IMG/VR virus record: IMGVR_UViG_2671180814_000012
Source of the DNA: a virus
Taxonomy: Duplodnaviria > Heunggongvirae > Uroviricota > Caudoviricetes
Reading direction: 5' to 3' (one strand)
Length of the DNA: 5,746 bases
Position numbers and translations under genes: made by a program. Of this stretch, positions 2,975-5,746 are shown piece by piece. The notes beneath the pieces are model-generated. The model was not told the origin of the DNA. It did not search any database and saw only the letters and a list, made by a program, of their open reading frames with translations. Position 1 is the first letter of the stretch; every line of letters begins with the position of its first letter.

Positions 2975-3400
2975 TCAATGTACTGCCACAGCATTTCCTG
3001 CCGGGCCACCACGGTTCATCTGATTGAAACCGGCGATTGCCACTGCGACAAAATCATCAGCGTCTCTCACCAGTCGTTCATGCGTCTCCACCAGTTCCCG
3101 AAAATAAGCTGAACTGTGGCTGCGCATTCGAGCCACCAGCGGAGGTGGCATTGCCCTTTCGATCGCAGGTAACAACGCCTGAATTTTTTCAACAGCGTCA
3201 GGGGTGTCTTTATCCAGCCAACGGAAAATCTTTTGGGTGTTGAGATAAAGCGTGTTGTGCTTGCTGTCGTTATGCAGAACCGGAAACGTCATTCCCAGTT
3301 CGAAATAAACCCTGGTTATTTCAGCTGCCGGAACTTTTTCACCGTCCGGATGCGCCCAGGCTTTCATCGCCATGCGGATGTGTTCATGCTTGATTTTCAT
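2975..3400 (-). CDS. ydaT: CII-position regulator, YdaT-like (proposed functional analogue of lambda CII in Rac/CP-933P-type prophages)
   Basis: 141 aa starting MKIKHEHI.... ATG at 3400 preceded by GGGGGTGA. Its start overlaps the stop of the upstream Cro-like gene (ATGA at 3397-3400). Position between cro-like and O-like genes. Family name is from recall of Rac YdaT (about 140 aa), not from a search. Confidence 0.6.
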   Translation of the reverse strand: MKIKHEHIRMAMKAWAHPDGEKVPAAEITRVYFELGMTFPVLHNDSKHNTLYLNTQKIFRWLDKDTPDAVEKIQALLPAIERAMPPPLVARMRSHSSAYFRELVETHERLVRDADDFVAVAIAGFNQMNRGGPAGNAVAVH

Positions 3401-3660
3401 GAATCACCCCCCGCCGATGGTTGTGTGTTAGCCTGAAACTCAGCAGGCAAGCCGTCAGTTGGGTTGGGGTAGGTTTTACTGTCAATCTCATGTGGGGTCA
3501 CCACCCATCCCGTTGCTTCACACCAACGTAATATTTTTTCTCCTGTAAGTTTTGCACGCCCCGTTATAACGTGGCTGACCATCCCTTGGGATGCGCCAAC
3601 AATCTCAGCAAATGAACTCTGGGTTATATGAAAATGATGCAAATATTCTCCAAGATTCAT
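3397..3660 (-). CDS. ydaS: Cro-like HTH transcriptional regulator (YdaS/Cro-CI family), first gene of the early-right-equivalent operon
   Basis: About 87 aa from ATG at 3660 (MNLGEYLHHF...), preceded by AGGGCGG; the track ORF extends to a TTG at 3687. Candidate HTH segment SFAEIVGASQGMVSHVITGRAKLTGEKILR. Divergent from the repressor gene across an operator-containing intergenic region. Confidence 0.65.
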   Translation of the reverse strand: MNLGEYLHHFHITQSSFAEIVGASQGMVSHVITGRAKLTGEKILRWCEATGWVVTPHEIDSKTYPNPTDGLPAEFQANTQPSAGGDS

Positions 3661-3696
3661 AATCCGCCCTATGTGATGTGTTACCAATGCATAATT

Positions 3697-3759
3697 AATA
3701 GCACTGTTATTTTTAAAAGTAAATAGTGATGCTATTTCAAAGTGATTAGCAATCTTATT
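3697..3759. promoter_or_regulatory. OR-like operator region: three 15-bp dyad-symmetric sites between the divergent repressor and cro-like genes (expected to overlap PR/PRM-type promoters)
   Basis: Sites at 3697-3711 (aatagcactgttatt), 3722-3736 (aatagtgatgctatt, near-perfect palindrome) and 3745-3759 (attagcaatcttatt, weakest). Centre-to-centre spacing is 25 and 23 bp. Half-site consensus AATAGY / GCTATT. A candidate minus-strand -35 TTGAAA sits at 3740-3735 with a poor -10; promoter hexamers are not confidently assignable. Confidence 0.6.
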
Positions 3760-3771
3760 AGAATTGGATGT

Positions 3772-4272
3772 ATGAAAAGAAAATCATTGTCAGACACCGA
3801 CCTCAACGCCGCCAGAAGACTGAAAGAAATCTGGATGGCAAAGAAATCTCAGTTGGGATTGACTCAGGAACGTGCGGCGGAAATTATGGGGTTTTCAACA
3901 CAAGGGGCGGTAAGTCACTACCTAAATGGTCAAACCCCACTAAACCTTGAGGCTGTTCTAAAGTTTGCTGGCTTACTGAAAGTTCCCCCTGAGTCAATCA
4001 GGCCAGACATGGTAGATTTGCTGCAAATTGCAAGGATGTATTGTCGAGAACCACAGCAAGATAACATAGTCGCATTACCAGCAGACACAGAACAAACAGA
4101 GGATGAACTACCGTTTGCCGTAGAGCCGATGGAACGAGATTTAATCCATACGTTCAGAGCTTTTCCGAAAGAAGATCAAGAACACATGCTTCAGGAGATG
4201 AAAGATAAAAAAGAATCAATGGATCGTACGGTTGCGCGGTGGTTAGCTGCACAAAAAGGCCGTCGCGCCTAA
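3772..4272 (+). CDS. paaR2: Prophage repressor with a lambda CI-like N-terminal HTH domain and a short acidic C-terminal region lacking a LexA/S24 peptidase domain (RacR/PaaR2-like)
   Basis: From ATG 3772 (MKRKSLSDTDLNAARRLKEIWMAKKSQLGLTQERAAEIMGFSTQGAVSHYLNGQ...), 166 aa. This aligns by eye with the lambda CI N-terminus (...[41 protein letters not shown]...). The track ORF starts at GTG 3742, which would run through operator site 3. No Ala-Gly cleavage site or Ser/Lys dyad context is recognisable. Symbol is recall-based and tentative. Confidence 0.75.
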   Translation: MKRKSLSDTDLNAARRLKEIWMAKKSQLGLTQERAAEIMGFSTQGAVSHYLNGQTPLNLEAVLKFAGLLKVPPESIRPDMVDLLQIARMYCREPQQDNIVALPADTEQTEDELPFAVEPMERDLIHTFRAFPKEDQEHMLQEMKDKKESMDRTVARWLAAQKGRRA

Positions 4273-4291
4273 ATCAGAGGAGATATGTAAA

Positions 4292-4486
4292 ATGAGTACA
4301 GTCCTTTCCCCAATGGTTTCAGAATTTGAGACAGTTGAGCAAGAAAATAGTTACAACGAATGGCTGCGGGCCAAAGTAGCAGCAAGCCTCGCGGATCCCC
4401 GCCCGGCGATTCCGCATGATGAGGTAATGGCGGAAATGGAACAAATTATTGCCCAAATTGCTGCTGCAACTCACAGAGGTGAATAA
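4292..4486 (+). CDS. paaA2: Small type II antitoxin partnered with ParE (PaaA-like, ParE-associated antitoxin)
   Basis: 64 aa (MSTVLSPMVSEFETVEQENSYNEWLRAKVAASLADPRPAIPHDEVMAEMEQIIAQ...). AGGAG 8 nt upstream of the ATG. Its stop overlaps the toxin start (TAATG at 4483-4488). Size and partner match my recollection of the roughly 63-aa PaaA2 antitoxin of E. coli O157; unverified. Confidence 0.65.
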   Translation: MSTVLSPMVSEFETVEQENSYNEWLRAKVAASLADPRPAIPHDEVMAEMEQIIAQIAAATHRGE

Positions 4487-4776
4487 TGTTACCCGTTTTA
4501 TGGCTACCATCTGCTCGTGATGATTTGCGCCAGATCGTAGCCTACATAGCTAAAGAAAATCCCGCGGCAGCACGCAGAATGAAAATTCGAATTGAAACAT
4601 CCGTTTTGCCGCTCACAGAGCATCCTTACCTGTATCCTCCAAGCGAGCGAGTTCTTGGTCTTCGTGAAATTGTAACTCATCCTAACTACATCATCCTTTA
4701 CCGAGTAACAGCATCAAGCATAGAAGTAGTAAATATTGTGCATTCTCGAAGACAGTATCCAGGCAAAAACAGTTAA
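4486..4776 (+). CDS. parE2: ParE/RelE-superfamily toxin (ParE-family type II toxin)
   Basis: 96 aa. ParE-like pattern: N-terminal LPVLWLPSARDDLRQIVAYIAKENPAAARR and C-terminal YRVTASSIEVVNIVHSRRQYP (ParE consensus ...I.I.RVLH.R.D-like). Overlaps the upstream antitoxin by one base. Followed by an intrinsic terminator. Confidence 0.8.
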   Translation: MLPVLWLPSARDDLRQIVAYIAKENPAAARRMKIRIETSVLPLTEHPYLYPPSERVLGLREIVTHPNYIILYRVTASSIEVVNIVHSRRQYPGKNS

Positions 4777-4792
4777 TTATTCCCGCCGACAG

Positions 4793-4818
4793 AACCACCT
4801 TAGGGTGGTTTTTTCTTG
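4793..4818 (+). terminator. Rho-independent terminator closing the repressor-antitoxin-toxin operon
   Basis: Stem aaccacc (4793-4799) pairs with ggtggtt (4804-4810), loop ttag, followed by tttttctt (4811-4818), 17 nt after the parE stop. Confidence 0.7.
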
Positions 4819-4832
4819 CCCCAACAAAAAAC

Positions 4833-4875
4833 AATAGCGATGCTATTTACATCAAAAAAATAATGATGCTATTGT
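4833..4875 (+). promoter_or_regulatory. OL-like operator pair carrying the same dyad motif as the OR region, overlapping a candidate PL-type promoter reading rightward
   Basis: aatagcgatgctatt at 4833-4847 is a perfect 6-3-6 palindrome; aataatgatgctatt at 4859-4873; spacing 26 bp. Candidate -35 TTTACA (4846-4851) and -10 TATTGT (4870-4875) with an 18-bp spacer, both overlapped by the operators. Confidence 0.55.
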
Positions 4876-5054
4876 TTCAGGCGTCAACCCACCCCGCCCC
4901 ACAGAATGCAGGGCAATACTTCGAGTTACCAGACAGTGGTCAGGGGTTAAGTAGCCAGCCCGAGGCGTAAGAACATGACGGCAGGGTTCAATCTTTAACT
5001 ATGCAGCAGGTTTTTTGTTCCGCCACCCCGGCGTTAAGGGGAAATGAGGTCAGC

Positions 5055-5207
5055 ATGGATACTATCGATCTTGGCAACAACGAATCTCTGGTGTGCGGCG
5101 TGTTCCCTAACCAGGATGGAACGTTTACCGCCATGACGTATACCAAAAGCAAAACGTTTAAAACCGAATCTGGCGCGCGTTGCTGGTTAGCCAGAAACAC
5201 TGACTGA
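5055..5207 (+). CDS. Small hypothetical early-left protein, about 50 aa
   Basis: ATG at 5055 preceded by GAGG 5 nt upstream (MDTIDLGNNESLVCGVFPNQDGTFTAMTYTKSKTFKTESGARCWLARNTD). The track ORF begins earlier at 5001 without a convincing RBS. Stop overlaps the next ORF's ATG (TGATG at 5205-5209). Confidence 0.4.
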   Translation: MDTIDLGNNESLVCGVFPNQDGTFTAMTYTKSKTFKTESGARCWLARNTD

Positions 5208-5584
5208 TGAGGCTGACGATGGAATTTAAAGATTTACCGTCTGATGTACAGAAAACAGCAGCTCATACATTGCATTCTGTGCTGCGAGAAATCGGGAAAG
5301 ATATTGCAAGCGAGCCAGCAAAAGATCTGGCCCGGAAAATCAAGACCGCTTTCGTTGAGCTTTATAATGTTGGCACTGACTCTGAAACTGTCGAGACCAA
5401 GACCGTAAGTTCACCAATATTCTCACTTGAGCCAAGCGTATTATCAGGTGAAATATGCACCGAGATTTCCAGCGAACTGCTTCCGGTAATACGAGAAGCA
5501 ATTCGCCGTCGCGGTTTGGATGGAAGTTATGATCATGACGTTCTGCAAGTTCTCAGGACAATGGTGACTTCACTGGGGATTTGA
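5207..5584 (+). CDS. Hypothetical early-left protein, 121-125 aa
   Basis: Start either at 5207 (coupled to the upstream stop) or at 5219 (MEFKDLPSDVQK..., GAGG 8 nt upstream). Amino-acid composition looks protein-like; no recognisable motif. Confidence 0.5.
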   Translation: MRLTMEFKDLPSDVQKTAAHTLHSVLREIGKDIASEPAKDLARKIKTAFVELYNVGTDSETVETKTVSSPIFSLEPSVLSGEICTEISSELLPVIREAIRRRGLDGSYDHDVLQVLRTMVTSLGI

Positions 5585-5746
5585 TCCCTGCGTCCTCTAA
5601 GCTTTTGATATAGCGGTCCTCCAAGAAGCGGTAAATTTTGTCGAAATCATCTTTTCCCTCTGGTTTATTCAGAGGATTACAGGACCCGTAAGTAGCGGCA
5701 TACATTTCAACCGTTTGGTAATGACTCCAACTTATTGATAGTGTTT
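5553..5746 (-). CDS. 3' end of a minus-strand gene entering from beyond the right window edge (partial CDS, C-terminal about 64 codons)
   Basis: Hand translation of the minus frame finds no stop from 5746 down to TGA at 5553-5555 and reads ...SWSHYQTVEMYAATYGSCNPLNKPEGKDDFDKIYRFLEDRYIKSLEDAGIKSPVKSPLS*. Not in the supplied track, presumably because the start is outside the window. Overlaps the 3' end of the plus ORF by about 32 bp. Confidence 0.35.
   Translation of the reverse strand, partial: TLSISWSHYQTVEMYAATYGSCNPLNKPEGKDDFDKIYRFLEDRYIKSLEDAGIKSPVKSPLS

Follow-up and report, generated by a model that had tools for sequence, protein, structure and literature searches.

Organization of the locus

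The DNA analysed here is a stretch of 5,746 nucleotides from virus record IMGVR_UViG_2671180814_000012, and this whole stretch is referred to below as the window. Between positions 3772 and 4818 it carries, on the plus strand, a repressor gene followed by genes for an antitoxin and a toxin, which we identify as a heteroimmune member of the known and experimentally studied PaaR-PaaA-ParE family. The operon is made up of the following features:

3772-4272, plus strand: paaR-like repressor gene, 166 amino acids (aa), with a match to HTH_3
4292-4486, plus strand: paaA-like antitoxin gene, 64 aa, Pfam family PaaA2
4486-4776, plus strand: parE-like toxin gene, 96 aa, Pfam family ParE_toxin
4791-4818, plus strand: intrinsic terminator ending the operon, an analogue of lambda tImm, recognized by RNA folding and by comparison with relatives

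The original prediction, which had been made from the sequence alone, placed three open reading frames (ORFs) at these coordinates, with a gap of 19 bp between the first two and an overlap between the antitoxin and toxin genes. The same ORFs were found in our analysis, and RefSeq calls the corresponding three coding sequences (CDS) in the 99.4% identical locus of E. coli FDAARGOS_944, in agreement with that layout. The 19-bp spacer between the repressor and antitoxin genes (4273-4291) contains a GAGGAG Shine-Dalgarno sequence, and the antitoxin stop codon and the toxin start codon share one base (TAATG).

An intrinsic terminator had been expected only after the toxin gene. RNA folding gave a 9-bp hairpin at 4791-4812 leading into a U-tract (-15.1 kcal/mol, z = -2.5), so that the operon indeed ends at 4791-4818. 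A simple terminator scan did not report this hairpin, probably because the longest stem extends into the U run. In E. coli JB2, whose locus is 78% identical, the hairpin is kept with a changed loop, and the O157:H7 locus L002 has another hairpin followed by a T-run at the equivalent position. A sequence scan of the plus strand detected no promoter-like or terminator-like site between 3887 and 4846, which is consistent with one transcript for the repressor, antitoxin and toxin genes, and bears out the expectation that no such signal splits the repressor gene from the toxin-antitoxin (TA) pair. Promoter-like sites on the minus strand (4887-4860) and on the plus strand (3859-3887) occurred at chance frequency (5 found, 5.6 expected).

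A similar repressor-antitoxin-toxin stretch is present in 842 of the 5426 complete E. coli genomes. The toxin and antitoxin genes have a ratio of nonsynonymous to synonymous substitution rates (dN/dS) of 0.05-0.09, with dS saturated (>1). Such wide sharing, combined with such a low ratio, excludes a chance arrangement.

Operators and promoters

A palindromic 15-bp motif, AATAGN5CTATT, occurs at five sites on both flanks of the operon. When up to two mismatches are allowed, it has 6 matches in the window against 1.68 expected, and a single shuffle out of 200 gave 6; the sixth match, at 1051, is unrelated. The right-hand (OR-like) and left-hand (OL-like) operators and the promoters associated with them are:

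3697-3711: OR1-like operator AATAGCACTGTTATT, with half-sites the same in JB2
3722-3736: OR2-like operator AATAGTGATGCTATT, adjoining the PRM-like -35
3745-3759: OR3-like weaker operator ATTAGCAATCTTATT, between the PRM-like -35 and -10, with two mismatches to the consensus
4833-4847: OL2-like operator AATAGCGATGCTATT, overlapping the PL-like -35
4859-4873: OL1-like operator AATAATGATGCTATT, overlapping the PL-like -10
3736-3764, plus strand: PRM-like promoter TTCAAA-17-TAGAAT, found by promoter scan and invariant in JB2
3695-3723, minus strand: PR-like promoter TTTACT (3723-3718)-17-TGcTATTAA (3700-3695), read from the sequence and facing the cro-like gene
4846-4875, plus strand: PL-like promoter TTTACA-18-TGcTATTGT, found by promoter scan, upstream of the ydfA-like early-left genes

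In the JB2 locus (about 78% identical), both stronger OR sites have unchanged half-sites around different 5-bp spacers. At the OR3-like site the 3' half is invariant and the 5' half has one base change, and the OL position in JB2 holds two matching operator sites as well. Invariant half-sites with varying spacers are the footprint that would be expected of protein-binding sites.

The PR-like promoter, which we infer from the sequence, was absent from the scan output because it has A at position 6 of its -10 element. It is built like the PL-like promoter: in each of them the -10 lies within one operator and the -35 touches the next. A gap of 7 nt lies between the -10 of the PRM-like promoter (TAGAAT) and the ATG of the repressor gene, which has no Shine-Dalgarno sequence, and the repressor mRNA is probably leaderless. 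The geometry of this -10 and ATG is the same as in lambda PRM, which serves cI, and in PRM933P, which serves paaR2, both of them documented as leaderless (PMC8630535). OL-like operators had been predicted beyond the terminator, and the motif copies at 4833 and 4859 are found there. The operator map and the comparison with lambda further agree with the proposal that the TA pair lies between OR-like and OL-like operators, in the slot occupied by rexA-rexB in lambda.

The toxin and the antitoxin

The similarity of the product of ORF 4486-4776 to the ParE family, on which the proposal depended, was clear. The toxin matches Pfam PF05016 (ParE_toxin) over its full length (1.8e-17), and residues 1-93 match the crystallised ParE2 of O157:H7 (PDB 5cw7/5cze) with about 70% identity (6.7e-37). 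The antitoxin matches Pfam PF21217 (PaaA2, 'stability determinant'; 3e-23) as well as PaaA2 in PDB 3zbe (1.4e-23), and family-model searches gave no match to a DNA-binding family (helix-turn-helix, HTH, or ribbon-helix-helix, RHH) or to ParD. These matches, together with the similarity of the C-terminal part of the repressor, substantiate the kinship with paaR2-paaA2-parE2 that had been suggested in the original prediction. The dN/dS values are 0.05-0.06 for the toxin gene and, in comparisons with JB2 and L002, 0.07-0.09 for the antitoxin gene.

The genomes of O157:H7 contain two such loci each. L002, the locus of O157:H7 strain Z1766, is the best O157:H7 match, and its identification as paaR2 was considered and rejected: its repressor starts with MMSALE and the published protein with MQKKE, and its antitoxin differs from the PaaA2 deposited in PDB. 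From the presence of two loci per O157 genome and from the statement in PMC8630535, we infer that L002 is the CP-933M paralogue named in that paper. The window toxin is 86% and the antitoxin 77% identical to their L002 counterparts. Thus, PaaA2-ParE2, which had been proposed as the counterpart of the pair, belongs to the same family, but the pair is nearer to this second O157:H7 locus.

The repressor

The 166-aa repressor matches Pfam HTH_3 (8.3e-9), and its residues 2-81 are homologous to the DNA-binding domain of lambda CI (PDB 1lmb, 2.9e-9; BLASTP against lambda CI, 5e-14). No match to Peptidase_S24 was found in Pfam, and the protein is only 166 aa long. Its C-terminal 64 aa are 56% identical to those of the L002 repressor, and the similarity to the latter is confined to this region; across four repressor types, PaaR2 included, 19 columns of the C-terminal alignment do not vary. 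Residues 106-162 match the DicA family model NF007257 (7e-8); since the score of 32 bits is far under the family cut-off of 101 bits, the repressor is not a DicA orthologue. Judged by its sequence, the protein is a hybrid between a lambda-CI-like N-terminal HTH and a PaaR/DicA-type C-terminal region. Its initial description as a CI-like repressor therefore holds for the N-terminal domain but not for the C-terminus, which is of PaaR/DicA type and without the S24 autocleavage domain.

Relatives of 243-255 aa (P0018, P0020 and P0022) have tandem HTH domains, a CI-like one followed by a PaaR1/DicA-like one, and then the PaaR C-terminal region. The 166-aa repressor may correspond to this 244-aa tandem-HTH architecture minus the inner HTH, and the longer relatives would connect lambda CI with the PaaR repressors through direct homology. 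A PDB sequence search found no structure of PaaR2 with which the C-terminal region could be compared.

Limits of the immunity cassette

Alignment with heteroimmune relatives by blastn set the limits of the cassette. The flanking sequence, up to about 3410 on the left and from about 4885 on the right, shows 94-95% identity, and the interior is replaced or far more diverged, the DNA of the TA genes inside it being only 75-78% identical. Against the O39 prophage, which has a LexA-family fragment and no TA pair, similarity ends at 3410 and is back at 4892. Against Escherichia phage Evi, which is of the PaaR2 type, it ends at 3406 and is back at 4885, and between these points only pieces of the TA genes match, at about 76%. 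The left boundary is accordingly placed at 3407/3411 and the right one at 4885/4892. As similarity stops and resumes at these points, the cro-like gene, OR, the repressor gene, the TA pair, the terminator and OL/PL constitute one exchangeable immunity cassette (positions 3400-4885). For ydaT, outside the cassette, dS is 0.3-0.6, as compared with values above 1 for the TA genes. The toxin and antitoxin genes are old alleles that have been under strong purifying selection.

The right-hand boundary of the cassette coincides with one further feature:

4885-5000, plus strand: non-coding leader, nearly invariant, at the right-hand cassette boundary

This leader, covering about 110 nt past the PL-like promoter, hardly varies among five heteroimmune prophages, and 12 deposited phage genomes have it with 80-97% identity. 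An Rfam scan of the whole window with E up to 1 gave only chance-level matches (mir-331, AS-pc02 and hairpin ribozyme), far under the gathering scores, so the leader contains no known put-like or nut-like RNA element. Folding of 4882-4998 gave no thermodynamic signal (z = +0.6). An N gene was not evident in those loci examined that carry the leader. The segment may serve as a linker for recombination, as a binding site for a protein, or as a leader or antitermination element of a kind not described so far.

The slot following the repressor gene has different contents in related cassettes. It holds HipA_2 with DUF3037, matching A and B of the PADLOC candidate PDC-M66 (L013/L014, 3787-5360); a HigB-HigA pair matching PD-Lambda-2_A and part of PD-Lambda-2_B (L015/L016, 3612-4339); or an ORF of 112-120 aa, unknown in nature (L019/L020, 3553-3915). 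In other related cassettes it holds PaaA-ParE again or is empty, the latter in the O39 prophage. As the relatives hold such differing cargo, the slot after a PaaR/DicA-type repressor gene is variable; the rex position in lambdoid phages is a variable cargo site too.

The deposited genome of phage Evi has a genuine set of PaaR2 (with the MQKKE start), PaaA2 and ParE2, in which parE2 is unannotated beside annotated paaR2-like and paaA2-like genes (L004 3501-3776, corresponding to LR597642.1 24917-25192). Because this set sits in a sequenced phage genome, the canonical paaR2-paaA2-parE2 is not limited to cryptic prophages. E. coli FDAARGOS_944 carries a complete lambdoid prophage whose immunity region is 99.4% identical, and the gene order is shared by full lambdoid prophages, the O157:H7 locus and phage Evi.

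Neighbouring genes and prophage context

To the left of the repressor gene the following features were identified:

2975-3400, minus strand: ydaT-like gene, 141 aa, Pfam YdaT_toxin (5.1e-9), 81% identical to L002 YdaT
3397-3660, minus strand: ydaS/cro-like HTH gene, 87 aa from the ATG at 3660, HTH_3 (5e-4, under the Pfam cut-off)
3390-3407: YdaT-operator-like inverted repeat TTGATTTTCATGAATCAc at the ydaS/ydaT junction, with one mismatch to the published TTGATTN6AATCAA

The ydaS-like protein shares 36% identity with its YdaS-like counterpart in L002, and RefSeq has an 87-aa CDS at the equivalent position. The window contains two matches to the YdaT operator with at most two mismatches, as against 0.46 expected, and the position of the repeat at the junction agrees with that of the published OM site at the ydaS end. 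YdaT is a functional analogue of lambda CII (PMC8630535, PMC9986795). The name 'toxin YdaT' used by Pfam and RefSeq is misleading, as published work shows YdaT to be a CII-like transcription activator and no toxin. Farther left lie O-like, DnaC-like and DUF1627 genes. Within the O-like replication gene (356 aa) there are two clusters of closely spaced (C)GTGAC(A) repeats (2477-2515 and 2737-2775), at a distance of 260 bp, which may be origin iterons like those of lambda O. Right of the PL-like promoter a ydfA-like DUF1391 gene is followed by a 125-aa ORF (5207-5584), for which Pfam, NCBIfam and PADLOC gave no match.

The window belongs to a decayed lambdoid prophage of Shigella sonnei, of the Rac/Qin/CP-933 type, and the source names attached to the repressor protein agree with this species. 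It is 99.9-99.98% identical to S. sonnei chromosomes (for example HE616528.1), in which the prophage is a remnant with the insertion sequence IS1 and deletions, located beside ynfF/G/H-type genes, and its immunity region is intact. The Qin prophage of K-12 adjoins ynfF/G/H-type genes likewise. The end of the window (5717-5746) is the terminal inverted repeat of IS1, GGTAATGACTCCAACTTATTGATAGTGTTT. In the S. sonnei loci the IS1 transposase gene begins at the window end, and thus the left arm of the prophage is interrupted or deleted. Relative to six S. sonnei chromosomes, the window is without 138 bp between 86 and 90, in the region of a DUF977 gene. In the assembly collection, 6004 indexed blocks contain exactly this repressor protein.

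Function of the operon

The original prediction suspected that such an operon had already been described, and rightly so. For CP-933P, Jurenas et al. (2021; PMC8630535) reported the operon, OR and OL, the promoters PRM, PR and PL, the leaderless paaR2, bistability and addiction. PaaR2, a CI analogue, represses PL as well as PR, from which the Cro and CII analogues ydaS-ydaT are expressed, and it controls its own leaderless PRM transcript. This transcript also encodes PaaA2 and ParE2, and YdaT activates a PRE-type promoter reading into the operon. PaaA2 lacks a DNA-binding domain; it neutralises ParE2 through direct contact and is subject to degradation by ClpXP/ClpAP. The locus stabilised an unstable plasmid, and its expression was bistable. 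PaaR2 is without a RecA-cleavage motif (S24), and there was no response to mitomycin C (all PMC8630535).

It is likely that paaR-paaA-parE of the window is the leftward maintenance operon of the immunity cassette, with the TA pair serving as an addiction module. Gene content, homology, the layout of operators and promoters, the limits of the cassette and purifying selection are direct observations in favour of this conclusion. In its further parts the proposed mechanism follows CP-933P, on whose example repressor binding, co-transcription, toxicity, antitoxin lability and the addiction phenotype would be expected here too. The repressor would shut off PR (ydaS-ydaT) and PL and autoregulate PRM, and both the leaderless PRM transcript and a YdaT-activated PRE-type transcript would also yield PaaA and ParE. 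PaaA, presumably devoid of a DNA-binding domain like its relative, would neutralise ParE by wrapping around the toxin and would itself be degraded by ClpXP/ClpAP. Because of this degradation, a cell in which the cassette is lost or silent would be poisoned by the stable, nucleoid-associated ParE. In this way PaaA-ParE addiction could protect the immunity cassette, or the prophage remnant, from deletion or replacement. As the repressor has no S24 domain, the switch would not be cleavable through RecA and the SOS response.

The presence of an intact cassette in S. sonnei prophages that are otherwise cut down fits retention by addiction. Several points weigh against this interpretation. Retention in S. 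sonnei could reflect clonal descent and not selection. The N-terminal domain of the repressor and its operators are unrelated to those of PaaR2 (28% overall identity of the proteins), so the regulatory details are extrapolated. Moreover, Jurenas et al. saw ParE2 activity in neither state of the switch (PMC8630535).

A role of PaaA-ParE in anti-phage exclusion or abortive infection (Abi), expressed from the lysogen in the manner of RexAB, appears unlikely to us. A phage that stops host transcription, or that degrades or titrates PaaA, might leave free ParE to halt the cell before progeny are released, although we regard such a chain of events as doubtful. The idea draws on the slot itself, which equals the position of rexA-rexB between the repressor gene and the terminator with OL, on the predicted expression of the pair from the maintenance promoter, and on the other cargo, defence candidates included, found in the same slot after PaaR/DicA-type repressor genes in related cassettes. 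The lability of PaaA2 is also a property on which Abi-type TA systems depend. On the other hand, positional analogy is no evidence of function. None of the three proteins matches PADLOC (v2.0.0, E up to 0.01, zero matches), the two CP-933P papers are silent on exclusion and abortive infection, and release of ParE2 was absent under all conditions tested for CP-933P (PMC8630535). In our literature searches, nothing relevant came up on PaaA-ParE in defence or on the S. sonnei locus; 'PAAR2' in a Burkholderia paper denotes an unrelated type VI secretion cluster. It is likewise improbable that the slot after PaaR/DicA-type repressors is a general site for defence or addiction genes co-transcribed with the repressor, in which PaaA-ParE would act in Abi or exclusion besides addiction or instead of it.

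The absence of a DNA-binding domain from PaaA, and the fact that the system was first described as a three-component TA, would also suit an autonomous module in which the HTH protein is the DNA-binding half of a split antitoxin and regulates its own operon only, without any prophage switch. This idea is discussed in PMC8630535. We consider it very improbable for the window locus, as the same operator sequence covers a second promoter 1.1 kb away, past the terminator, which drives the early-left genes, and the OR sites overlap the divergent promoter of the cro-like and cII-like genes. In addition, the N-terminal domain of the repressor is homologous to that of lambda CI and its C-terminal region is as in DicA; repressor, operators and cro-like gene are exchanged between prophages as one cassette; and related repressors are found with other cargo or with none. 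It is hardly credible that the operon has no present activity and is just what remains, inert, of a dead prophage. Truncation of the S. sonnei host prophage and its interruption by IS1 might suggest this, and CP-933P is cryptic as well. However, none of the three ORFs is truncated, the promoter, the operators and the terminator are all intact, dN/dS remains at 0.05-0.09 across deeply diverged alleles, and the true PaaR2-PaaA2-ParE2 set occurs in the genome of Escherichia phage Evi.

The locus shows that the scheme of CP-933P, with the TA pair on the repressor transcript, also occurs in Shigella sonnei, with a different immunity specificity and with a repressor in which the resemblance of the DNA-binding domain to that of lambda CI can be recognised. 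The pair has diverged along with heteroimmune cassettes over a long time (dS >1, strong purifying selection), and it persists in a prophage that is otherwise being dismantled. The varied TA and defence-candidate cargo of the slot makes a rex-like defence role plausible enough for a cheap test, and is not evidence for such a role. The significance of the locus beyond annotation is small.

Comparison with known systems

The paaR2-paaA2-parE2 system of CP-933P goes back to Hallez et al. (2010), as cited in PMC8630535. Structures of PaaA2-ParE2 are available (5cw7, 5cze, 5czf and 3zbe), and PL933P with its OL operators has been published for CP-933P (PMC8630535). The rex-slot framing had been offered as worth pursuing in its own right. 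It is not new, since Prolic-Kalinsek et al. (2023) already stated that paaA2-parE2 takes the place of rexA-rexB, and the three-gene unit has been published too.

The window locus resembles CP-933P in gene order, in the short spacer before the antitoxin gene, in the adjacent or overlapping TA genes and in their position between OR and OL/PL. It also shares with CP-933P the divergent ydaS-ydaT, a probably leaderless repressor start, a PaaA-family antitoxin without a DNA-binding domain, a ParE-family toxin, and a repressor without S24 that has the common C-terminal region ...FxAFP...KKxS...ARWxAAQKxRRA. Among the differences, the identity of the toxin to ParE2 is about 70%, and the antitoxin departs from PaaA2 in its C-terminal third. 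The window repressor has 166 aa, whereas PaaR2 has 123 aa, with 28% identity overall; homology to CI is detectable in the N-terminal domain of the window repressor, whereas PaaR2 has been described as lacking sequence similarity to CI. The operators are AATAGN5CTATT in the window and GTTTAGTAA-type repeats in CP-933P. A clear terminator follows parE in the window, and none was seen in the Evi/PaaR2 sequence.

L002 provides the closest toxin (86%) and antitoxin (77%), including the type of antitoxin C-terminus (MAEME..IAQIA), a YdaT with 81% identity, and a hairpin with T-run as terminator after parE. In contrast, the N-terminal domain of its repressor and its operators are unrelated to those of the window; the two loci are therefore heteroimmune.

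Compared with cI-rexA-rexB-tImm of lambda, the window likewise has the repressor gene first, a PRM-type promoter and three OR sites, and two accessory genes follow the repressor gene on the same (here predicted) transcript, succeeded by the terminator and OL/PL. Two OL sites are detectable here, as opposed to three in lambda, and the repressor is without S24. PaaA and ParE are unrelated in sequence to RexA and RexB, their only Pfam matches being PaaA2 and ParE_toxin, and the pair is not known to cause exclusion. The C-terminal region of the repressor and the ydfA-like (DUF1391) genes downstream are shared with DicA of the Qin prophage in K-12, where ydfA directly follows dicA, with no TA pair known between them. 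The RK2-type ParD-ParE system has the toxin family in common with the window, but the antitoxin here is of the PaaA type, with no ParD.

As far as sequence allows one to judge, the locus is therefore neither an S24-type CI system, for there is no peptidase domain, nor RexAB, to which there is no homology, nor a canonical ParD-ParE, for which ParD is missing. It has all those defining features of the PaaR-PaaA-ParE family that can be recognized in DNA.

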